Positions 1-49,320 of a stretch of DNA of 64,000 nucleotides are shown here, piece by piece (position 1 is the first letter of the stretch; each line of letters begins with the position of its first letter). The stretch is from Patescibacteria group bacterium (GTDB lineage Bacteria > Patescibacteriota > Patescibacteriia > UBA9934). Where the stretch lies: the NCBI GenBank assembly GCA_041666145.1, contig JBAYHK010000005.1, positions 8,921-72,920 on the forward strand. Reading direction: 5' to 3'. Below the pieces are notes generated by a model. That model did no database searches, had not been told where the DNA came from, and saw nothing but the letters and a program-made list of their open reading frames with translations. A program made the position numbers and the translations under genes.

Positions 1-474
1 AACTCCCATAGCAACGTTCATTGTAAGCACGATGACCATCGCCGGAATTGCCAATCGGTCAGGAATGATGCTCGCACGCCAATCAAACATGAAAATCGGC
101 AAAAGGAGCATTGCAAGAATTCCGTTGCGAATAAAGAGCGCAATAACATCAGAAGCGTCTCGAGCGAAAAACGGAATACTCACGTCGCCAGAAAAAATCT
201 GCCATGCAAAACCAACAAATAAAATTCCCATCGCTATCTCAAGTGCAGGATACTGCCATGGAATAATCGACTTACACGCTCGACATTTTGCCTGAAGCAC
301 AATGTAGCTCACTAAAGGAAAATGATCTTTTGCATGCATTGGCCTTGCGCAAGTCACACATTTCCTCCTTCCAGCGGTAAAACGTAAACCATCAGGCGTG
401 CGAAGAAGAAATGTATTTACAAGCGCGCCACATGCAAGCCCAAGAACAAGAGCAATACCTAGAGGAATCAACAT
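1..474 (-). CDS. pilD: Prepilin peptidase (A24 family), N-terminal ~158 aa. The ORF runs off the window start, so the 3' end is missing.
   Basis: Manual minus-strand translation from ATG at 472-474 gives MLIPLGIALVLGLACGALVNTFLLRTPDGLRFTAGRRKCVTCARPMHAKDHFPLVSYIVLQAKCRACKSIIPWQYP...FMFDWRASIIPDRLAIPAMVIVL with no stop before nt 1. It has the tetracysteine CxxC...CxxC motif and the D...IIPD catalytic-Asp region typical of prepilin peptidases. It is absent from the ORF track because it is open-ended. Confidence 0.7.
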   Translation of the reverse strand, partial: MLIPLGIALVLGLACGALVNTFLLRTPDGLRFTAGRRKCVTCARPMHAKDHFPLVSYIVLQAKCRACKSIIPWQYPALEIAMGILFVGFAWQIFSGDVSIPFFARDASDVIALFIRNGILAMLLLPIFMFDWRASIIPDRLAIPAMVIVLTMNVAMGV

Positions 475-477
475 ATT

Positions 478-963
478 TTAAATAGCAGAACAGGCGCCCG
501 CAGAAAAACCATTCTCAGAAAGACAGTTCACACCTTTTGCAACCCCGAGCAAAGCGTTTCCACTTTCGAGTTCAAATTCAATACGAAATGCATCTTCTGA
601 CCCGCTATAACAATAGACATCATTAACATCGTTACAAGAAACTTTCTCTTTCAATCCCGCTGCTGGTGGAACGGTAACAAGACTTAAATACGGAGTTGGG
701 CCACTCACGGAACAAGGACCAGAAAAACCCTCCTGAGATAAACATGAGGTAAGCGCCTGACCAAGTGCAATAGGAACTTCAGCAGACGGATACGCACTGT
801 GATTTTGAAAATACATATCAACCGACATCTGAATCTCTCGTACATTTGCAAGACGTGTTACGTCACGCGTATGCGACCGCGCAGAAAGAACAGCGTAACC
901 AGAGATCAATCCAATGACTCCGATGATCGCACCCATAATGAGAAGCTCAGCGGTTCTTGTCAT
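478..963 (-). CDS. Type IV pilin-like protein with a prepilin-type N-terminal hydrophobic helix and a conserved Glu
   Basis: Internal start MTRTAELLIMGAIIGVIGLISGYAVL within ORF 478..1086 has the hydrophobic N-terminal helix with Glu typical of pilins/pseudopilins. It is followed by a Cys-containing C-terminal domain. It lies between pilM and pilD. The leader is atypical, so the start is uncertain. Confidence 0.5.
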   Translation of the reverse strand: MTRTAELLIMGAIIGVIGLISGYAVLSARSHTRDVTRLANVREIQMSVDMYFQNHSAYPSAEVPIALGQALTSCLSQEGFSGPCSVSGPTPYLSLVTVPPAAGLKEKVSCNDVNDVYCYSGSEDAFRIEFELESGNALLGVAKGVNCLSENGFSAGACSAI

Positions 964-1327
964 AAAAAATTTGCAAACGCGCCATAATATCGCGCGGACT
1001 ATGTTGTGTTGTAAGGAGTATATCATCGGCACCCGCCTCATAAAGCAAAGATCGCTGCTCATGAGAAAGCTTGTGACAAAGCGCAAGAATGCGCATGTTC
1101 TTTAATGCAGGATGTTTTCTCATCCTCCGAATGTCATCAACAAGGGAAGCAACAACATCTTCATCAAGCAAAAGTGCAAACGGTCGAAGCTGCAATGCCC
1201 GACGTTCAAATTCTGCAACATCTTGCAGACATACAATTTTCGCAAATCGCTCCCCGTATCGCTCATACATGCTCCGAATAACTACATGCGGAACAATACA
1301 AACAATCTGAGGACGCGAAGCGATCAT
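947..1327 (-). CDS. CheY-like receiver domain protein (single-domain response-regulator-like)
   Basis: 126 aa. LLLDEDV ... ALCHKLS ... AGADDILL pattern resembles a receiver (REC) fold with the acidic pocket. It sits inside the pilus gene string. Confidence 0.5.
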   Translation of the reverse strand: MIASRPQIVCIVPHVVIRSMYERYGERFAKIVCLQDVAEFERRALQLRPFALLLDEDVVASLVDDIRRMRKHPALKNMRILALCHKLSHEQRSLLYEAGADDILLTTQHSPRDIMARLQIFYDKNR

Positions 1328-1329
1328 AT

Positions 1330-2469
1330 TTATTTCTCTTTTTCAGGAACAACTCGCATTGCTAAACCAATAGCAACAGCAAATCGACTTCCAACTTCAT
1401 CTAAAACAGGTCGAGATGCCAACGGCGTTGCAATACGCGCCCAAGGATCACCAACATACACATTAACATCAAGCGCATTTGTCATTGCCTTATCAAATCC
1501 AGCAAGCTGCGCAGAACCACCAGTAAGAATAACCTTATTAATGAGCTTCGTCGCAACATGTGAATCTTCTTGCAAGTTCATATCAAGTGCATATTTTGCC
1601 TCATGCAACAACGGCTTAATCGCACTCACAAGTGCTGAAGGCATAACATCGCCATCATTAAGCACAATGTCTTTTTTCATAGCCTCCGCTTCTGACATTC
1701 CAATCCCCATTGCACTTGAAAATGCCGAGGTAACAGCATTACCGCCAGATTTAATACCGCGTGTTACATATGGAACACCACGCTCTGCAATAATAATATT
1801 CGTTCGTTCACCACCAACATCAACAATCATCGTTTTTGCACTATCTTTCCCAATCAAAGCACGCATAAGCGCAAACACTTCAGTTTCCAATGAAACCAGA
1901 TCAAGCTTTGCCATTTTGAATACTGCAATGTATTTCTCTACAAGCGCTTTTGGTGCCGCAGTTACCTGAACACGCACCGTCTTGCTACCAACCTCAGCCT
2001 TGGGTTCCGCAATATCTACCTTCCCATCTTGTTGCTTCTGCTCCTCTTTTGGCAGCATGTCCTTGTCAATAATATGCGAGTCGATAATCATTTCCGAAAT
2101 TGGAAGAGGCAATAACTTCGCAGTCTGCACCTCAACAATCGAACGAATATCTTCCTTTGCAGACTTTGGCATTGGAATGCTGATGATCGCATGAAACACG
2201 CTCGATGCTGGCAACGCGGCAACTGCTTTTCTCGCGTTCATGCCGCTCGTCTTCACAATATTCTGAATGATGTCTGCAAGGTGCTTCGGGTCGTCAACAG
2301 AGAGTACAGACACATCCCCTCCTGGAGCAATATCTGCGTATCCATACGTCACCAAACGAATCTTTCCTCCTTCTTGCATTAACTCGACAATCTTAAGACT
2401 CGTCGTCCCAATATCAACCCCGAGCAAGCCAGATGACGGCTCTTCTTTCTTCGTTCCAAAAAGAGACAT
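1330..2469 (-). CDS. pilM: Type IV pilus assembly ATPase-like protein PilM (actin-like)
   Basis: GLLGVDIGTTSLKIVEL N-terminus and overall actin/FtsA-like architecture of PilM. Probable start at MSLFGTKK (internal M of ORF 1330..2523). Confidence 0.8.
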   Translation of the reverse strand: MSLFGTKKEEPSSGLLGVDIGTTSLKIVELMQEGGKIRLVTYGYADIAPGGDVSVLSVDDPKHLADIIQNIVKTSGMNARKAVAALPASSVFHAIISIPMPKSAKEDIRSIVEVQTAKLLPLPISEMIIDSHIIDKDMLPKEEQKQQDGKVDIAEPKAEVGSKTVRVQVTAAPKALVEKYIAVFKMAKLDLVSLETEVFALMRALIGKDSAKTMIVDVGGERTNIIIAERGVPYVTRGIKSGGNAVTSAFSSAMGIGMSEAEAMKKDIVLNDGDVMPSALVSAIKPLLHEAKYALDMNLQEDSHVATKLINKVILTGGSAQLAGFDKAMTNALDVNVYVGDPWARIATPLASRPVLDEVGSRFAVAIGLAMRVVPEKEK

Positions 2470-2512
2470 AGTGCAAAAAGTATAACATGACAGTTGCAAA
2501 TATAACCCGCTA

Positions 2513-2929
2513 TTACGCTGCATCTAACGAAGCATTTACCAATGAATCTGCATGCATATTCTGTTCACGAAAGACATGCGTAAATTTCACCGACCTAAAC
2601 TGCGTTCGAAGATTATGAACCTCTAAAAATCGCTTTGCGATTTCTGGATTCCTTACTCGATACTCTCCATTCAACTGTTTTACAGCAAGCTCTGAATCCA
2701 ATCGAACATCTACAAACTCATAACCAAATTCCTTTGCTTTCTGTAAACCAATAATGATGCCCGTATATTCCGCCTGATTGTTCGTATTCATCCCAATATA
2801 TTTCACAACCTCTGCAATGCATTCCCCCTCCGTTCCGTCATCATTGAGCGCAAAGAGGACAGCAGCACCAGCAGCCTTCCCTGGATTTCCCCTCGATCCT
2901 CCGTCTGCATACATTCGTACTGTCTTCAT
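2513..2929 (-). CDS. rnhA: Ribonuclease HI
   Basis: YADGGSRGNPGKAAGAAVL ... NNQAEYTGIIIGLQKA RNase H type 1 signature. 4-nt ATGA-type overlap with upstream recJ. Confidence 0.85.
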   Translation of the reverse strand: MKTVRMYADGGSRGNPGKAAGAAVLFALNDDGTEGECIAEVVKYIGMNTNNQAEYTGIIIGLQKAKEFGYEFVDVRLDSELAVKQLNGEYRVRNPEIAKRFLEVHNLRTQFRSVKFTHVFREQNMHADSLVNASLDAA

Positions 2930-4647
2930 ATATGTTTTTGAATATCTACTATTTTACATTGAACCTCACGCCTCCCATTCCATACGTTTATTCCAGGCTC
3001 ATACGCAATATCAACTCGTGTTCCTACTGAAAATTCTTTCGCTCTATTTCCCAACCCAAATCCTACAAACTTTCGAGCCACGCCTTCTTCATCAAGAACC
3101 GTGAGTCGAAGATGCGATGCTGTTGTTCCCATTGTTTCTACCGTCATAACTGTTTCGCCGCGTACTGCAAACACTGGAGAACGATTCCCTTCCCCGAATG
3201 GCGCACAAGCTTCCAACGACTCAAGAAGATCAAGCGTCATCGCTGACGGCGCAACAACAGCATCTATCATCAAAGTCTGTACAACTCCAACATCCCCAAA
3301 AATCCCTTTTGCAAATTCATTTACTCTTTTCCTAAATAAATCGACCTGATCAAGGGTCTGTATTGTCAATCCGCAAGCTTGAGGATGACCTCCTTTTTTC
3401 AAAAATACATCACCACATGCATCCATCGCTTCAACAAGATGCAATCCACCGGCAGTTCGTCCGCTCCCAACATATCGACCATCTACCCGAGTCAAAACAA
3501 ATGCAGGACAACCAAAATCACCGACCAACTTTCCTGCAATCAATCCAACAATCCCCGGTAACCAATCGTCACTCGTCACCACAAGAACTTGATTCGCAGA
3601 AAGCATGTTGCGTGCAATCCCTTCTGCTTGTTTATATGACGCTCGAAAAATATTCTGACGTTCTCGATTCAGTCGCTCCAAAATAGTCGCTGCAGCCTCC
3701 GCCTCTCCAATTGATGTTGCCGCAATCGCATCAAATGCAAGTCGAGCACGAGAAAGTCGACCCGCTGCATTAAGTCGCGGACCAATACGAAATCCAATGG
3801 CTTGCGTATCAACTCCCCCAAGCTCAGTTCCAGACGCTGCAAGAATCGCTCGAATACCAGGCCGACGAGTCTTATTCAGAACTTTCAATCCAAAGTGCTC
3901 AAGCACACGATTCTCTCCAGTAAGCGGCATTACATCAGTAACCGTAGCAATCGCAACCAAATCCAACATCCATTTTTCATAACCATTAACAAAATCCGCA
4001 CCTCGCTTTCGAGCCTCGCAAATCAACGCTGAAGCAAATTTGAACGCAACACCAGTTCCACAAAGCGACCTGTTTGGATACGTCTCGCCTGGTGATGAAG
4101 GATGAAGAACAATCGCATGATTTGGAAAATGTTCACCAAGCTGATGGTGATCACAAACTATCGTTACAATCCCAGCATCATGCGCATGATCAAGTTCAAG
4201 ACCGTACGCAATGCCGCAATCAATCGTAACCAAAAGTTTCTTTTCTTCTGCAATAAATCTGTCGACGGTGTGCATGGCAACTCCATAACCATCACGCTCA
4301 CGATCTGGTAAAAACACCTCAACATTCAAAACATATTTCATCTGCTCTGCAATGTCCTTCAAGGCACCAAAAAGTAACGCAACTCCAGAAACACCGTCTG
4401 CATCATAATCACCGTGAATCACTATCGCGTCACCATGTTCCATTGCAAAGAACATTGCATCTACCGCCTGCTGCATTTGCGCAAAAAGAAACGGTGAATA
4501 CGTCCCCTTCTCCCAATCTGGAGACAAAAAATATTCTCGCTCTTCAGGCGGAATTCCACGATTTACCAAAAGCTGCGTCACGAGATCATCGTGGTTTCGC
4601 GGCGCAATGATCCATTCGCGTGGCATGCTAAAAACCAAACTGACCAA
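2926..4647 (-). CDS. recJ: Single-stranded-DNA-specific exonuclease RecJ (DHH/DHHA1)
   Basis: VIHGDYDADGVSGVALL DHH motif, length 573 aa, DHHA1-like C-terminal half. Confidence 0.85.
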   Translation of the reverse strand: MVSLVFSMPREWIIAPRNHDDLVTQLLVNRGIPPEEREYFLSPDWEKGTYSPFLFAQMQQAVDAMFFAMEHGDAIVIHGDYDADGVSGVALLFGALKDIAEQMKYVLNVEVFLPDRERDGYGVAMHTVDRFIAEEKKLLVTIDCGIAYGLELDHAHDAGIVTIVCDHHQLGEHFPNHAIVLHPSSPGETYPNRSLCGTGVAFKFASALICEARKRGADFVNGYEKWMLDLVAIATVTDVMPLTGENRVLEHFGLKVLNKTRRPGIRAILAASGTELGGVDTQAIGFRIGPRLNAAGRLSRARLAFDAIAATSIGEAEAAATILERLNRERQNIFRASYKQAEGIARNMLSANQVLVVTSDDWLPGIVGLIAGKLVGDFGCPAFVLTRVDGRYVGSGRTAGGLHLVEAMDACGDVFLKKGGHPQACGLTIQTLDQVDLFRKRVNEFAKGIFGDVGVVQTLMIDAVVAPSAMTLDLLESLEACAPFGEGNRSPVFAVRGETVMTVETMGTTASHLRLTVLDEEGVARKFVGFGLGNRAKEFSVGTRVDIAYEPGINVWNGRREVQCKIVDIQKHI

Positions 4648-4837
4648 AACTCACAAGCATGGAAATCATGACCAACATGGCAATAACCATCCAAACCTTC
4701 TGTATTTTTTTTCTCTGTAAAGTCATGCGCACAGGGTAACAACGTAAAAGCGTCCCGTCATGCCCAACTGGGGACGATATTGATTTTTTTCTCTTATTAA
4801 AGCTAATATCAGTCGCCACACAAAGGGAGAGAAATCA

Positions 4838-5467
4838 ATGGGCACAAAAGAAAAAAGGTTCGATCCTTCAAAATTCACTGTCGTCTTCGACAGAATAGAA
4901 CCAGGAATAGGAGAGATTGGGGTTTGTATCGCCGGAGAATGGGATCTCGGCAGTGAAAGCTTCGCCGTCCTCGACCACGAATTACTCACCTACACAAGAG
5001 CAAGTGACCAGTCACTAATCATACCGATTGACGACAAAAAGCTCGCAAAAGAGATTCTCACAATCGCAATCTCATTCTTCTTCATTTCCGAAGGAGACAT
5101 CGTCACAAGTAAAGAACAACCGATACGAACAGATATCGATGGAACAGAAATCTACACACTCAAGATTCCTGAGTATGGAAAAACCGAAGTGGAGTTCGCC
5201 GGCGCAATCGATATCGATGAGGTCATATACCAGCTGTGCTTCGCACGTCGCTCAAATCCTCTTGTCATCATCCTGGAAGTCACAGGAACAGATCCGATCG
5301 CATTCCGAGAAATAGATCTTAAGAACAGAGATCTTATCGAGGAGATCACTGAAGCCTTTCTTCTCGAAATGGGGATTGGAACTCCTGAGACGGAAGAGGA
5401 AGAGGAGTGCAAATCAAAGAAACCTGGCGTATCTGCATGGGTCCCGATCCTCGATCAAGAAAACTAA
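4838..5467 (+). CDS. Hypothetical acidic protein
   Basis: 209-aa ORF preceded by SD-like AAAGGGAGAG 7 nt upstream of ATG. Ends in a Glu-rich tail and is followed by a hairpin terminator. No family recognised. Confidence 0.45.
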   Translation: MGTKEKRFDPSKFTVVFDRIEPGIGEIGVCIAGEWDLGSESFAVLDHELLTYTRASDQSLIIPIDDKKLAKEILTIAISFFFISEGDIVTSKEQPIRTDIDGTEIYTLKIPEYGKTEVEFAGAIDIDEVIYQLCFARRSNPLVIILEVTGTDPIAFREIDLKNRDLIEEITEAFLLEMGIGTPETEEEEECKSKKPGVSAWVPILDQEN

Positions 5468-8116: not shown

Positions 8117-8689
8117 TTAAAAGCCCATTGTAAGATTCACCGCTTCCTTTGCTTGAACTGGAGTGAAGTTCACCGGAATCAGTCGACGTTCACCAGATCG
8201 ATCGTCGTACAAAACGTAACCATTTTTTAACCCAAATTCGTACACTTCTTTTGTCACCTTCACGTCTTGTAAGCAATACTCACGAATCTCATCTATCTTC
8301 CCCTCCTTCCACCAAGCAACTGCCTGAAGACCGTGACTCGATTTCCTCGTTCCAACCGTTGCCGCGGCAACATCATCAAGCTTTATTCGGTATCCTAATG
8401 ACTTTTCAATGTGTTGCAAAATGTCGAGCTGCTGAAGCTTGAGCAAATCTCCGGCGTAATAATTGTTTAAAACAGGCATGTCAAAACCGATTGAATTGTA
8501 TCCAATAATTCGGCCACCAACTTCAAGTTTTGCAAACATCTGCGGCAAATCTTTTTCTAAATACGACTCGTAGGTATCTGTTTCGTAGTAATACACGCCA
8601 ACAAGAGAAACTTTCAGTTTATCTGTAAAATACCCACCAACTTCCTCAAAAGTATTCTGTGTTTCAATGTCTAAAACAATATCGTTCAT
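8117..8689 (-). CDS. DEDDh-type 3'-5' exonuclease (DnaQ-like fold)
   Basis: VLDIETQNT (Exo I), IGYNSIGFDMPVL (Exo II), HGLQAVAWW...EYCLQDV (Exo III, H-x4-D). Confidence 0.65.
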   Translation of the reverse strand: MNDIVLDIETQNTFEEVGGYFTDKLKVSLVGVYYYETDTYESYLEKDLPQMFAKLEVGGRIIGYNSIGFDMPVLNNYYAGDLLKLQQLDILQHIEKSLGYRIKLDDVAAATVGTRKSSHGLQAVAWWKEGKIDEIREYCLQDVKVTKEVYEFGLKNGYVLYDDRSGERRLIPVNFTPVQAKEAVNLTMGF

Positions 8690-9612: not shown

Positions 9613-10404
9613 TTACAAAGCAACAAAAATCAAAAGCATAAGCAATCCAAAGCCTATTCGATAATATGCAAATGGAAGAAAATCTTTTGTTTGAATGAAA
9701 TGGAGGAATGCACGAATAACAAAGAAAGCTGAAACAAATGCAGTAATAAAACCAACAATCAAAAGTTCAACTTCGCTTAAAGTAAGCGACACCCCATCTT
9801 TCATGAGCGTATAGATTGAAGCAGCGGCAAGTGTTGGTATTGCAAGCAAAAATGAAAACTCAGCAGCAACTGGACGTGTAACGCCAAGCATGAGTGCTCC
9901 AATTATCGTCGCAGCAGAACGCGATGTTCCGGGAATGAGTGCCAAACATTGAACTCCGCCTATAAAAAATGCCACCTTGTAAGACATCCGGTCGATACTC
10001 TTTATGTATTCCGTGTGACGACCCCACTCTATAAACATGAGAGCGATGCCTCCAACAATTAACGCAAGCGCTACGATAATAGGATTAAAAAGCGACTCTT
10101 TTATTACTGAACCAAAAAGTCCGCCAAGCACAATTGCTGGAATTACCGCAATCAGAATCTTTGTCCATGTTTTCAAAACAACACGATCTATCTTTTTATG
10201 AGTAACTGGCCAAATTTTCTTCCAATACACCACAACAACAGCAAGAATTGCACCAAACTGTATGACAACGTCAAACGTCTTTGTAAAATCTTCAGAAAAG
10301 GCAATCCACTGATTTGCAAGAATGAGATGCCCTGTCGACGATATTGGTAAAAATTCAGTAATGCCTTCAATCAGCCCAAGTGCAATTGCCTTGAGAAATT
10401 CCAT
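9613..10404 (-). CDS. uppP: Undecaprenyl-diphosphatase
   Basis: GITEFLPISSTGHLIL and PGTSRSAATI signatures. Polytopic membrane protein, 263 aa. Confidence 0.9.
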   Translation of the reverse strand: MEFLKAIALGLIEGITEFLPISSTGHLILANQWIAFSEDFTKTFDVVIQFGAILAVVVVYWKKIWPVTHKKIDRVVLKTWTKILIAVIPAIVLGGLFGSVIKESLFNPIIVALALIVGGIALMFIEWGRHTEYIKSIDRMSYKVAFFIGGVQCLALIPGTSRSAATIIGALMLGVTRPVAAEFSFLLAIPTLAAASIYTLMKDGVSLTLSEVELLIVGFITAFVSAFFVIRAFLHFIQTKDFLPFAYYRIGFGLLMLLIFVAL

Positions 10405-45797: not shown

Positions 45798-45839
45798 TAC
45801 GATGCACATTATTCCAATCTTTATCTTTCAAATCTTTTT

Positions 45840-46133
45840 ATGTTCAATAAGCTTAAACAGATCAATGACCTCCGCACACAAAGCAAGCAAATGAAAGCAA
45901 TGCTTGATGAAGTCGTCGTTGTAGGGCAAAGCTCGGGCGGCAAAGTTATGGTCACCGTGAACGGAAGTCATGAAACGCTCGGAGTGCAAGTCGCCGACGA
46001 TCTTGATCACACAAAAATCGCAGAACACATCAAAGCAGCGCTCAATGATGTAAATAGCAAACTTCAAGGAGAGCTTATGAAAAAAATGAAGGAGATGGGC
46101 GGACTAGATGCGTTCAAAAATCTTGGACTGTAA
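45840..46133 (+). CDS. ybaB: Nucleoid-associated protein YbaB/EbfC
   Basis: 97 aa. Conserved KQMKAM...VVVGQSSGGKVMVTVNG...HETLGVQV core. Followed by recR. Confidence 0.9.
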   Translation: MFNKLKQINDLRTQSKQMKAMLDEVVVVGQSSGGKVMVTVNGSHETLGVQVADDLDHTKIAEHIKAALNDVNSKLQGELMKKMKEMGGLDAFKNLGL

Positions 46134-46784: not shown

Positions 46785-47417
46785 CTATTCATCAATGACC
46801 CCTTCTTCAGATTCAATGTTTATTTTTCGTTTTCGATTTTCAAGAACCTGTACAACACAATAAAAAACAATAATCACAAGCATCCCAAGTCCTACCCAAC
46901 GAATCCCACGATGAATCGACGACCAGAATTGTCCAAAAAAGAATCCGACTGCAAGATACGAAATAGACCACAGAATACCACTCACAATATTCATAATCAT
47001 GAATGATCGCCAGCGCATTTTCAGGACTCCGGCAATAAATGGAACGAAAGGACGCAGCGGGCCAAAGAATCTACCGAAAAATACCCCAACAACACCATAA
47101 TCATCCATGAACTTTTCTGCACGATCGATAGCCCTCTGAGAAAAAAGTACAGGAAATCGTTTTGCAGGATTCACTCCTAGGCGTCCAAGAACAAAACTGA
47201 AGATATCTCCCAAAATCGCTCCAATAGCAGCAACGAATGCAGCCGTCTGCATATTAAACAGATGCTGAGAAATCAAAAATCCAAAAATAACTACAAATGT
47301 TGCGCCTGGAATAAGAAGTCCAAAAACAGCAATAGATTCACCAAAAGCAACTGCAAAAAGAAAGGCATATGCCCATCCGCCAAGCTGAGAAAGAAGCGAG
47401 AACCAATGTTCAAACAT
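46785..47417 (-). CDS. DedA/TVP38-family membrane protein
   Basis: GGWAYAFLFAVAFGESIAVFGLLIPG motif, 210 aa, 4-6 TM. Confidence 0.75.
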   Translation of the reverse strand: MFEHWFSLLSQLGGWAYAFLFAVAFGESIAVFGLLIPGATFVVIFGFLISQHLFNMQTAAFVAAIGAILGDIFSFVLGRLGVNPAKRFPVLFSQRAIDRAEKFMDDYGVVGVFFGRFFGPLRPFVPFIAGVLKMRWRSFMIMNIVSGILWSISYLAVGFFFGQFWSSIHRGIRWVGLGMLVIIVFYCVVQVLENRKRKINIESEEGVIDE

Positions 47418-47514
47418 ATTGAATGGACTGAGGATAGCGCCGCCATCTCCTTCTTGCCAGAGCCGTCCCGCACATGATACGATTTTCGCGCATTATTCAA
47501 TGCCTTTACACCAT

Positions 47515-47591
47515 GCCGGTGTAGCTCAGATGGTTAGAGCGGCGGTTTTGTAAACCGCAGGTCGTCGGTTCGATTCCGACCCCCGGCTCCA
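47515..47591 (+). tRNA. tRNA-Thr (anticodon UGU), CCA encoded
   Basis: Hand-folded cloverleaf. Acceptor gccggtg/ccccggc (one mismatch), D-arm tagctcagatggttagagc, anticodon stem gcggt/accgc with loop ttTGTaa, T-arm ggttcgattcc, 3' tCCA. Confidence 0.85.
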
Positions 47592-47647
47592 CTTTTCACT
47601 ACTTTTGAACTTCAAGAAACTGGTCAGGAGATAAAAATGTAACGAGT

Positions 47648-47774
47648 GTAAGACGGAACGATTTGAGACTATTTTCGGTGCGGAGCTAGGAAAGCTCGCG
47701 AAACGTACTTCTTGGTACGTTGAGCGAGTTTCCGACGCGACAAACCGAAAAGAGGCCAAATCGTTCCGTCTTAC
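47648..47774 (+). repeat. Structured 127-nt module closed by a 17-bp perfect inverted repeat, abutting the 5' end of tRNA-Tyr
   Basis: gtaagacggaacgattt (47648-47664) pairs with aaatcgttccgtcttac (47758-47774). Inner 8-bp IR ttttcggt/accgaaaa and hairpins gagct-aggaa-agctc and acgtac-ttcttg-gtacgt. Confidence 0.5.
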
Positions 47775-47776
47775 CA

Positions 47777-47861
47777 GGGTTGGTACTCAAGCGGTCAACG
47801 AGGGCAGACTGTAAATCTGCTGGGCTTCCCTACGAAGGTTCGAATCCTTCCCAACCCACCA
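47777..47861 (+). tRNA. tRNA-Tyr (anticodon GUA), long variable arm, CCA encoded
   Basis: Acceptor gggttgg/ccaaccc perfect, anticodon stem gcaga/tctgc with loop ctGTAaa, long variable arm tgggcttccctacga, T-arm gaaggttcgaatccttc, discriminator a then CCA. Confidence 0.85.
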
Positions 47862-47863
47862 CA

Positions 47864-47987
47864 TAAAATCCAATAAAATTGTCCGTAGTGTTGTCACCTC
47901 CTGCGTGCGGCCCTCTCCGTACGGCAAAGTACGAATTCGGGCCGTACTCGTCGGCTCCTAGCTACAAACAATTTTATTGGATTTTAT
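47864..47987. repeat. Structured 124-nt module closed by a 20-bp perfect AT-rich inverted repeat, abutting the 3' end of tRNA-Tyr (MITE-like)
   Basis: ataaaatccaataaaattgt (47864-47883) pairs with acaattttattggattttat (47968-47987). Interior has gtacggc...gccgtac hairpin and GAATTC palindrome. Confidence 0.5.
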
Positions 47988-48423
47988 TCACTCGTTCTCG
48001 TTTTGCTAAAAACCGATACAAGACAAGTGCAAAATGAATTAAGCTTGGTCAGATTCTCAGAGCGAGTAGTTCATAAGTCCTATTGGTCTTATAGGACCTA
48101 TGAGCGAGCGACGACGAAGCTGGTCAAACTTGGATACCTTTTGCCCAGTGCAACATTTGCTAAGTTTGTTTACTGCTAGGAGCCACGAGGACCGAAGCGA
48201 GACGTACTTCACAGTACATTGAGCGAGGACCACAGTGGCGACACGACAAGAAACAAGTCAAGTGCAGAAATAATTAAGTTTGTTTAAATGCAAGGCGGAG
48301 CGAGGACGGTTACGACGTCTCCGGCTAAGCCGGATCCGGCTTCGCCGGAAAGACGTACTTCACGGTACGTCGTCGATCGCCCGCAGCGACAACGCCGCAG
48401 TTAAACAAACTTGGATTATTTCT
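47988..48423. repeat. Non-coding region with a degenerate ~200-bp tandem duplication and recurring hairpin modules, ending at tRNA-Thr(GGU)
   Basis: Direct repeats acaagacaagtgcaaaatgaattaagcttgg (48018-48048) and acaagaaacaagtcaagtgcagaaataattaagtttg (48244-48281). Recurring tgagcgag and gacgtacttcacNgtac hairpins. 12-bp IR taagtttgtttaa (48275-48287) / ttaaacaaactt (48401-48412). Confidence 0.45.
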
Positions 48424-48499
48424 GCCGCGGTAGCTCAGCTGGTAGAGCGCATCCATGGTAAGGATGAGGTCTCGGGTTCGATTCCCGACCGTGGCTCCA
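48424..48499 (+). tRNA. tRNA-Thr (anticodon GGU), CCA encoded
   Basis: Acceptor gccgcgg/ccgtggc (one G-U), D-arm tagctcagctggtagagc, anticodon stem catcc/ggatg with loop atGGTaa, T-arm tcgggttcgattcccga, tCCA. Confidence 0.85.
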
Positions 48500-48546
48500 A
48501 AAATCCCTCGCATTGTGCGAGGGATTTTTGATTGCATACACCGATA

Positions 48547-49320
48547 CTACACTTCAGGACTCAAAATAGTTTCCGAAATAACCTTATACCGTAAATGGAT
48601 AAAGGAATCTTTCAGTGTTGTACAAGAGATCAAATGAAGCGCTTTTACATTCGATAATTCATCTGGAGAGTGTATAGCCTTGCCATCAATAAGCGTCGAG
48701 ACTCCAGCCCCGCCTACTGCGAGCGGAGCAACGACGATAGACATTTCATCGATGAGCCCCGAACGCAACAACGTTCCATTCAGCGTGCCACCGGTCTGGA
48801 TAGTCATTCGCTCAATGCCGTGCTCTTGCCCGAGAACCTCAAAAAGCTTTTCAAAGTCCACCTCAGGCCACACAAGTGTTTGCACATTTCCGCCAAAAGC
48901 CCGAGCTGGATGATCAGGATTTGTCGTCACCACAATGACGCGCTCGAGCCAACTGGAAAGATAGCGCAATCCCTTTTCATGAAGATGTGGCTTGTTGTCG
49001 ATAATGACTCCAGTAACAGGAATGTGTTCAGCAATCGGTTCGCGTTCATTCATTCCTATCTTTTCAAAGACCCTTCCGCTTTGCAGAAAACAAGGGTCTG
49101 TCTGCTGCTCAAGATCGTAATACTGACACAAGCCTTCTTTCACGCCTTGAATACGCTTCCAATCTTTATCTGAATCAAGAACATCAGAGTCTCCGCTTGT
49201 AATCTTGCCATCAACGGACATGAGCATGAACAATATTGTATAGGGACGATTAGTCATAATGTCTCTAGTGTGTGAGATCCAAAATATAATTGCAAGCCAA
49301 ACATAGCGTCCCAATACCAC
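48547..49320 (-). CDS. RibD C-terminal-domain / dihydrofolate-reductase-like reductase
   Basis: PYTILFMLMSVDGKIT N-terminal signature and GG(T/A)L...G..DE pattern of the RibD_C/DHFR fold. Confidence 0.7.
   Translation of the reverse strand: MVLGRYVWLAIIFWISHTRDIMTNRPYTILFMLMSVDGKITSGDSDVLDSDKDWKRIQGVKEGLCQYYDLEQQTDPCFLQSGRVFEKIGMNEREPIAEHIPVTGVIIDNKPHLHEKGLRYLSSWLERVIVVTTNPDHPARAFGGNVQTLVWPEVDFEKLFEVLGQEHGIERMTIQTGGTLNGTLLRSGLIDEMSIVVAPLAVGGAGVSTLIDGKAIHSPDELSNVKALHLISCTTLKDSFIHLRYKVISETILSPEV

Follow-up and report, generated by a model that had tools for sequence, protein, structure and literature searches.

The question which we will discuss is raised by positions 47988–48423 of the window, as we call the whole stretch of 64,000 nt which was analysed. 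The genome is compact, with about 44% G+C, and the RecR protein encoded in the window is 60–77% identical to RecR in MAGs of Candidatus Uhrbacteria and Patescibacteria: its source is a Candidatus Uhrbacteria-like bacterium (Patescibacteria/CPR). What kind of sequence is the block found in these positions? A preliminary description presented it as an ORF-free region with a degenerate tandem duplication, and interpreted it either as a divergent structured RNA gene, possibly rnpB-like, or as decayed duplicated tRNA leader units. The lack of coding capacity is clear: all ORFs which overlap the block have at most 83 aa and none of them reaches its Pfam cut-off, the small ORFs giving a single sub-threshold match (15 bits, with a cut-off of 27). 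The block is not an assembly artefact either, since an independent ENA assembly of the same genome (L001) is identical over 1200 nt of this region and two Logan contigs are identical to the window across the parts which they cover.

The Thr-Tyr-Thr tRNA operon and its hairpin units

There are three tRNA genes on the plus strand, in which ARAGORN and Rfam agree: tRNA-Thr(UGU) in 47515..47591 (67 bits with the Rfam tRNA model), tRNA-Tyr(GUA) in 47777..47861, with its CCA encoded, and tRNA-Thr(GGU) in 48424..48499. A consensus scan gives a promoter-like site on the same strand, in 47454..47483, with TTGCCA, an 18-nt spacer, TACGAT and an upstream TG. The corresponding string, cttgccag...catgatacgatt, is also found 5' of tRNA-Thr(UGU) in three relatives (L011, L207 and L210); in a fourth one, L205, just the catgatacgatt part is kept. 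This site may act as the promoter of the tRNA operon. At the other end, a terminator-like hairpin (48498..48530, plus strand, inverted repeat I7) has a perfect stem of 15 bp followed by a T run. Counterpart hairpins are present after the last tRNA in the five relatives in which the end of the operon could be read (L005, L011, L205, L207 and L210), and it would terminate the operon. The block 47988–48423 would then lie inside one tRNA transcription unit. It had been described as located between tRNA genes, which is correct for its right border, tRNA-Thr(GGU), but the left border in 47988 is the end of a hairpin unit (copy B, see below) and has no tRNA. The complete Tyr-to-Thr spacer goes from 47862 to 48423: it has 562 nt and a predicted fold with z −8.9 when compared with shuffles, on either strand.

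The spacers of the operon contain five copies of a single element, an imperfect palindrome of about 125 nt. We call them A, B, C1, C2 and C3; units of this element have 112–165 nt. We have used two covariance models in their study, R1, which is based on five A copies, and R2, based on eleven copies. Copy A (47648..47774, plus strand, R2 138.5 bits) is an intact sense hairpin of 127 nt, which ends 2 nt before position +1 of tRNA-Tyr. Its basal helix is perfect over 18 bp, its MFE is −71.4 kcal/mol (z −11) and it shows covariation with its orthologues. Copy B (47863..47987, minus strand) is separated from the CCA of tRNA-Tyr by 1 nt. It is an inverted copy, with its family sense in the minus strand, since R2 gives a higher score in the strand opposite to that of the operon (28.9 bits, E 6e-5, versus 15.8 bits in the plus strand), as it also does in L005, L011 and L207. 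Its fold has z −8.9 and its basal helix has 26 bp with 92% complementarity; 12 of its 40 pairs covary among four orthologues.

The block itself starts with a linker (47988..48026, plus strand), defined by direct reading of the sequence. It is similar to the CCGTTCAGTTCC leader found in L218, L011 and L005 and is probably what remains of the native leader which tRNA-Thr(GGU) had. Three sense copies follow in the plus strand. C1 (48027..48145) is degraded: it is recognized by the direct repeats D2, D3 and D5 which it shares with C3 and by inverted repeat I13. The apical CGUAC helix of the family is replaced in it by a different 13-bp hairpin (48071–48103), its R2 score of 9.9 bits is not significant and its z value is −2.75. 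C2 (48148..48268), detected by R2 with 20.2 bits (E 0.009, z −2.0), has kept the core GAGACGUAC...GUACAUUGAGCGAG, which is nearest to those of the C copies in L011 and L207 (L011C and L207C); its 3' basal arm is truncated or degraded. C3 (48262..48426, inverted repeats I8 and I18) is an intact hairpin of 165 nt, with an MFE of −81.7 kcal/mol (z −9.75) and a basal stem which extends into the first two bases of tRNA-Thr(GGU). It carries a nested insert of 30 nt (48320..48349, plus strand, inverted repeat I10), formed by two tandem mini-palindromes of 15 nt each, TCCGGCTAAGCCGGA and TCCGGCTTCGCCGGA, which are the sole two matches in the window. Among the fetched loci this pair recurs only in L001, which is the same genome, and L017 has one single match. 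C1 and C2 would be decaying duplicates, and in the tandem only the tRNA-proximal C3 is intact.

These units account for the repeats which had been noticed previously. The block shared by both parts of the region is direct repeat D3, with 40 nt, 78% identity and copies in 48015–48054 and 48250–48289, 235 nt apart. The (T)GAGCGAG blocks (direct repeat D4) are found in 48088–48108 and 48207–48227, and also in 47708–47728 in the tRNA-Tyr leader. The ACGTACTTCNNGGTACGT hairpin is present in 48202–48219, in 48353–48370 and, for the third time, in the tRNA-Tyr leader (47703–47720): there are three matches in the window whereas 0.22 are expected, and none of 100 shuffles reached three. The homology of the leader of tRNA-Thr(GGU) with that of tRNA-Tyr is thus confirmed. 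The tandem repeats are real, but they are better described as three hairpin units of about 115–165 nt (C1, C2 and C3) than as two units of about 200 bp. The description as decayed duplicated tRNA leader units is right for the most part, although it is incomplete: the tandem units are homologous to the unit in the tRNA-Tyr leader and two out of three are degraded, but the unit is not specific for tRNA. It is a dispersed repeat which is also found in spacers of protein genes, in both orientations.

Copies of the element in related genomes

We have recovered the same operon in relatives through its RecR and DedA neighbours, in pieces of about 10 kb from each of them. L005 has a partial extra A in addition to A and B, with a different short hairpin before tRNA-Thr(GGU), and L011 has A, B and one C. 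A is absent in L207, where the Thr-Tyr spacer has 1 nt; B and one C come after it. L210 has A and then a Tyr-Thr spacer of 33 nt; L216 has A and a short B. The gene order is Tyr-Thr-Thr in L213, and its single C copy (L213C, 4538–4664) is the orthologue of C3 in the window, without the nested insert. Finally, two relatives have no unit at all: the spacers have 1 nt and 33 nt in L205, 9 nt and 24 nt in L218. Presence or absence of the element varies among relatives at every site which we have compared.

The 33-nt Tyr-Thr spacer is a short hairpin with 11 bp and a GCAA loop, AGAAAAGCUCG-GCAA-CGAGCUUUUCU in L205, with one base changed in L210. The long copy B of L011 and of L207 has the stem of the L205 hairpin as its basal stem, so that one site is occupied by either a long or a short form. 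An internal deletion mediated by the palindrome has probably left this short hairpin as a scar. A further feature is found in copy A of L210, which has a basal stem of the type linked to tRNA-Tyr and a core of the type linked to ybaB; it suggests that sequence exchange takes place between copies. According to these comparisons the units are dispensable, and mobile over evolutionary time; such variation is incompatible with a gene for an essential RNA.

The A, B and C types belong to one family. R1 and R2 match the C copies of L011, L207 and L213, in the window they match B (in the opposite strand) and C2, and an alignment of 19 sequences has a common core, GA-(A/G)CGUAC-loop-GUACG..GA. With these models we have found seven copies away from tRNA genes in 563 kb of relatives. 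Four of them are in the dnaB-ybaB spacer (L006 4532–4659, L009 3007–3134, L011 4573–4698 and L213 9304–9432), one is upstream of a gene for 95 aa (L006 6964–7090), one upstream of a DUF6938 gene (L207 9748–9874) and one, in sense orientation, between convergent genes, after a terminator (L010 7619–7745). L006 and L011 have copies in at least two separate loci each. In a Patescibacterium which is less closely related (L084 10423–10552) a covariance model also detects an inverted copy, placed directly against tRNA-Thr(UGU) on its 3' side; the apical helix of this copy covaries to ACGUAG/CUACGU. When the 64 kb of the window were scanned with R2 no copy was found outside the tRNA operon, and its dnaB-ybaB site is empty. 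The family is absent from loci with a RecR less than about 70% identical.

Scanning metagenomes with a pattern from the D-arm of tRNA-Tyr, GGTACTCAAGCGGTCAACGAG, gave 120 loci, mostly from unrelated organisms and none with the GGGTTGG acceptor stem; the pattern is too general, and L084 was the only useful locus. A spurious ORF which spans the operon of L005 gave only two weak matches in a protein-database search. In viral contigs the core pattern had two matches, which we attribute to chance, since neither is matched by the covariance model. No transposase gene is adjacent to the copies in the gene tables of the 10-kb pieces. An unrelated island with a reverse-transcriptase gene is found in L216, more than 3 kb away from its copy. 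Neither the flanks of seven copies nor the comparisons of filled and empty sites show any consistent target-site duplication.

Constraint on the hairpin and possible interpretations

The covariation statistics are limited to 11 A-like copies, with 47 base pairs, because the core alone was consistently aligned by MAFFT across all 19 copies. For the same reason a single consensus fold of the 19 copies, including the C-type and the reverse-complemented B-type, was dropped. In the 11 copies the arms are complementary along the entire length of the element. Pairing amounts to 95.9%, versus 79.9% with shuffled partners, and it falls to 30–44% when the partners are slid by 1–3 columns. The comparison of related loci, which had been suggested in the preliminary description, does reveal compensatory changes: double changes are present in 27 of the 47 pairs, versus 14.5 in shuffles, and the covariation score is 0.484, versus 0.174. 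None of 500 shuffles matched the observed pairing, double changes or covariation score. The two strands are not equivalent, as there are 38 cells with G-U pairs (in 13 pairs) versus 5 with A-C in these copies. The excess of G-U indicates that the sense strand folds as a single-stranded hairpin. Most independent copies are co-oriented with transcription, so that RNA is the natural reading of the folded strand, although single-stranded DNA is also compatible. The hairpin is kept on one strand by compensatory change.

The constraint is not uniform along the hairpin. The apical helix of 5 bp, CGUAC/GUACG, is invariant in the 11 copies. It is flanked by a symmetric GA/GA internal loop (columns 53–54 and 77–78 of alignment A6), which varies in only one of its four positions, where 10 of the 11 copies have G. 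The stems beside this loop covary, for example from CUCGC/GCGAG to CUUUU/AAAAG, and the outer 13 bp or so differ among subfamilies (such as GTGGGACGAAGC, CCTGAACGTTCA and TTAGGGGTTTCT). We have considered a kink-turn of the L7Ae type, which has a 3-nt bulge together with tandem G·A pairs; it was rejected since the loop is a symmetric 2x2 loop without bulge. Several features point to a constraint at the RNA level rather than to neutral selfish DNA: pairing is well preserved among orthologues, the tandem G·A loop is nearly invariant, G-U pairs are biased to one strand, and the sense copies are placed 2–6 nt from downstream starts in five independent sites. These sites are tRNA-Tyr, tRNA-Thr(GGU), ybaB, the 95-aa gene (L006 7097) and the DUF6938 gene (L207 9879).

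The explanation which we consider likely is that the block 47988–48423 is a tandem, C1-C2-C3, of a low-copy dispersed palindromic repeat of about 125 nt and not any known RNA gene. The element itself is best read as a co-transcribed palindromic repeat of the ERIC/MITE-like type, which would form a new family in a CPR bacterium. Its copies would occupy short intergenic spacers in one Uhrbacteria sublineage, where they would be gained, lost and duplicated locally, and they may exchange sequence with one another. In the window all five copies lie inside one putative unit, from the promoter-like site in 47454–47483 to the terminator-like hairpin in 48498–48530; they would therefore be transcribed within the Thr-Tyr-Thr precursor and fold into long hairpins. 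Being located in a tRNA precursor, the copies would have to be removed in tRNA maturation. RNase P would cleave at the 5' end of each tRNA, and the near-perfect basal helices of 18–26 bp may be substrates of the RNase III type. Several points go against the repeat reading: no target-site duplication is visible, the termini vary by subfamily while the core is conserved, which is the reverse of a classical MITE, within the window the family is confined to the tRNA operon, and the features listed above point to a constraint on the RNA.

As an alternative, the hairpin may be a cis-acting RNA module with a function of its own, a signal for processing or insulation directly 5' of tRNAs and cistrons. 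The polycistronic transcript would be cut into its units, for instance in the basal helix by RNase III, and the downstream 5' end would be exposed or defined in this way; recognition would take place at the invariant apical helix with its tandem G·A loop. Three points keep such a function in play. Sense copies end just before the downstream start in the five independent sites given above. With about −71 kcal/mol (the value of copy A), a hairpin placed 4–6 nt from an AUG should prevent initiation if it is left uncut. Furthermore the 3' arm of the copies linked to mRNA has AGGA/GAGGAAG 12–14 nt before the AUG. The invariance of the apical helix and near-invariance of the loop beside covarying stems, the G-U bias towards the transcribed strand and the intact state of C3, nearest to the tRNA, when the distal C1 and C2 decay, also fit a function. 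However close relatives lack the element at every site compared. There are also inverted copies (B and that of L084), in which the G·A loops turn into U/C mismatches, and the sense copy of L010 is found after a terminator between convergent genes. Tandem multiplication and decay resemble the dynamics of repeats, and in very short spacers any insertion ends near a gene boundary. On balance we think that a cis-acting module is unlikely. A more specific proposal, also rather unlikely and slightly more doubtful, is a CPR-specific RNA module whose CGUAC helix and G·A loop would be bound by an endonuclease or RNA-binding protein, setting downstream 5' ends or gating translation. If it were true, the repeat-like spread would be a way to wire genes into this processing system, in organisms whose set of RNases is reduced. 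We also considered that the 3' arm might hold a promoter giving leaderless transcripts; in every copy read the positions −12 to −7 are GC-rich, unlike a −10 box, and this idea was rejected.

It is improbable that the units have their role in DNA, as palindromes for protein binding or recombination comparable to the hairpins used by a single-strand transposase of the IS200/IS605 or RAYT type or to attC-like sites, with an incidental RNA form. The occurrence of both orientations, the invariant palindrome ACGTAC...GTACGT and the local tandem multiplication would agree with it, and the strand bias would fit too, since G·T pairs are also tolerated in hairpins of single-stranded DNA. On the other hand the loci examined have no transposase or integrase next to a copy, the unrelated island of L216 being the exception, the elements have about four times the length of REP, and most independent copies are co-oriented with transcription.

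It is extremely improbable that the block is a divergent RNase P RNA or some other large gene for a structured RNA (tmRNA, 6S or SRP). Such a gene could be suggested by the length of the non-coding block in a compact genome, by its strong predicted fold and by short strings which recall RNase P motifs. No covariance-model signal stands behind these strings. Scanning the window with cmscan at gathering score (4227 Rfam families) gives the three tRNAs only; with permissive filters in 47400–48600, RNase P, tmRNA, 6S and SRP are absent among the 13 matches listed at E<=10, and ARAGORN calls no tmRNA. Folding predicts a series of separate hairpins instead of a multi-domain RNA, and the units of the block are repeated elsewhere. 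L205 and L218 have the same operon but lack the block, which could not happen with an RNA as essential as that of RNase P. We also found no Rfam signal for fragments of group I or group II introns, T-box, retron or CRISPR-associated RNA.

We give practically no credit to the units being decayed tRNA genes or pseudo-tRNAs, an idea which could be based on the tRNA-Gly(UCC) that adjoins tRNA-Thr(GGU) in the same cluster of other fetched loci (Tyr-Gly-Thr(GGU) in L196, Tyr-Thr(GGU)-Gly in L148), a position where the window has 562 nt of non-coding DNA, but the spacers are negative with ARAGORN and with the Rfam tRNA model, the units are simple long hairpins with no T-loop or D-loop motif, and the same units sit in spacers of protein genes. 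A tRNA-like 3' end (ACCA) in copy A was also discarded: its AC is part of the stem and the C copies have no ACCA.

For annotation, a false lead is thus removed: this block hides neither rnpB nor another large RNA gene. What we document is a strongly structured and covarying family of repeats in Patescibacteria, where repeats are unexpected because intergenic DNA is scarce. The family is not found in Rfam 15, and the literature searched does not describe elements of this kind for Patescibacteria or Uhrbacteria. In these bacteria the spacers of tRNA operons are sites of insertion for hairpin repeats, which are multiplied there in tandem and decay. If there is a function behind their regular position immediately 5' of tRNA and AUG starts, the family would be a means to study how RNA is processed in uncultivated CPR bacteria.

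Comparison with known systems

The likeness with bacterial RNase P RNA (RNaseP_bact_a/b) is limited to the fact that the block is non-coding, structured and adjoins tRNA genes. It has no covariance match and lacks P4 and the other conserved regions; it is a modular row of hairpins, dispensable and present elsewhere as repeats.

The intervening sequences (IVS) of 23S rRNA offer a closer parallel: in some relatives, but not in others, the place of a short tetraloop hairpin is taken by a long, extended one. Copy B recalls this situation, with 125 nt at the site where L205 and L210 have a hairpin of 11 bp and GCAA. The early transcripts of phage T7 have hairpins for processing by RNase III. The long near-perfect helices of our element lie in the precursor of a stable RNA and would need excision. 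In contrast to IVS the elements are found in spacers, not inside a mature RNA, and they are also present upstream of protein genes.

The element resembles MITEs in being small and without coding capacity, since it has only short ORFs below Pfam cut-offs, and in having several dispersed copies whose insertion is polymorphic between relatives. It differs from them in that no target-site duplication is visible and, in the pieces of the relatives, no transposase gene was seen adjacent to any copy.

ERIC sequences are the nearest group in architecture. They are imperfect palindromes of about 127 nt, non-coding and intergenic in transcription units, with both orientations represented; related genomes differ in having or lacking them, and an RNA hairpin is expected in the transcript (Delihas 2011, PMC3184786). 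The element is similar to ERIC and to the MITE-like palindromes (Correia/NEMIS, RUP) in its size, in being an imperfect palindrome over its full length and in its non-coding nature. As with ERIC and REP, its copies are located between co-directional genes or between the tRNAs of an operon, in either orientation, and they would be transcribed, as judged from their position. The phylum is a different one, Patescibacteria, and a sequence relationship is not expected. No duplication of TA or any other target is seen. The element has variable termini around an invariant apical core, whereas a terminal inverted repeat (TIR) bound by a transposase would show the opposite. Its copy number is apparently low, and its copies cluster in a tRNA operon and abut the starts of genes.

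Operon order and possible exchange between element copies

Close relatives differ in the gene order and orientation of their tRNA operon. Among the Uhrbacteria loci which carry this operon, L213 has the order Tyr-Thr(UGU)-Thr(GGU) (4460–4909); in L205 (2912–3183) and L210 (3952–4372) the entire operon is inverted with respect to the genes beside it, CYTH and DedA.

In the L005 locus an extra, partial 5' half-copy of A, one copy of the ~125-nt hairpin element, (gtaaaacgaagctgtttgcgtcaagtttcggtgcggaagg, 8118–8160) lies immediately 5' of the full-length A, a further sign of local tandem duplication. Copy A of L210 (4048–4174) is chimeric when compared with two L011 copies (4573–4698 and 9753–9878): its outer stem is that of the copies linked to tRNA-Tyr, its core (GAGAAAAGCUUUUGAG...) that of the ybaB-linked copy of another genome. 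From its sequence, this chimera suggests that dispersed copies of the element undergo gene conversion.

Copies and empty site in the window

Copy B runs opposite to C2, and as a result its 3' part (47953–47976) is 79% complementary over 24 nt to the 5' part of C2 (48161–48184). In the precursor these two parts could pair with each other at long range, as an alternative fold. Between dnaB and ybaB the window has an empty site, a spacer (45798–45842) free of the element; it has no recognisable Shine-Dalgarno sequence 5' of the ybaB ATG (ctttcaaatctttttATG).

Probable insertion at a tRNA gene, and other hairpins in tRNA spacers

In L216 the tRNA-Thr(GGU) gene (region 4300–4560, minus strand) is intact only as far as the anticodon arm and receives no ARAGORN call. 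It is adjoined by an island whose genes (321–4243) comprise a phage-type integrase, Fic, an HTH protein and a diversity-generating retroelement (bAvd and reverse transcriptase). The island looks like an integrative element with the tRNA-Thr(GGU) gene as its insertion site.

Before tRNA-Thr(GGU), the place of the C copy is occupied in L005 (8573–8641) and L216 (4444–4514) by a hairpin of about 70 nt which is unlike the element, GAGCGGCCGA...UCGGG(C/U)AAGCGAGCA. The GCCG(A) string from the 5' end of the tRNA is also found immediately upstream of this hairpin, 3' of the conserved CCGTTCAGTTCC leader; it could have arisen by duplication of the target or be what is left of a tRNA 5' end. The more distant Patescibacterium locus L084 has repeats of its own, different from the element, in the Tyr to Thr(UGU) spacer (9999–10349): three hairpin units of about 33 nt (ggatgtcctgcgaagccttggcgtaggaggaca) stand in tandem, and a fourth is found farther along within a larger duplicated block. 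In these genomes, tRNA spacers seem to be sinks in which hairpin repeats generally accumulate.
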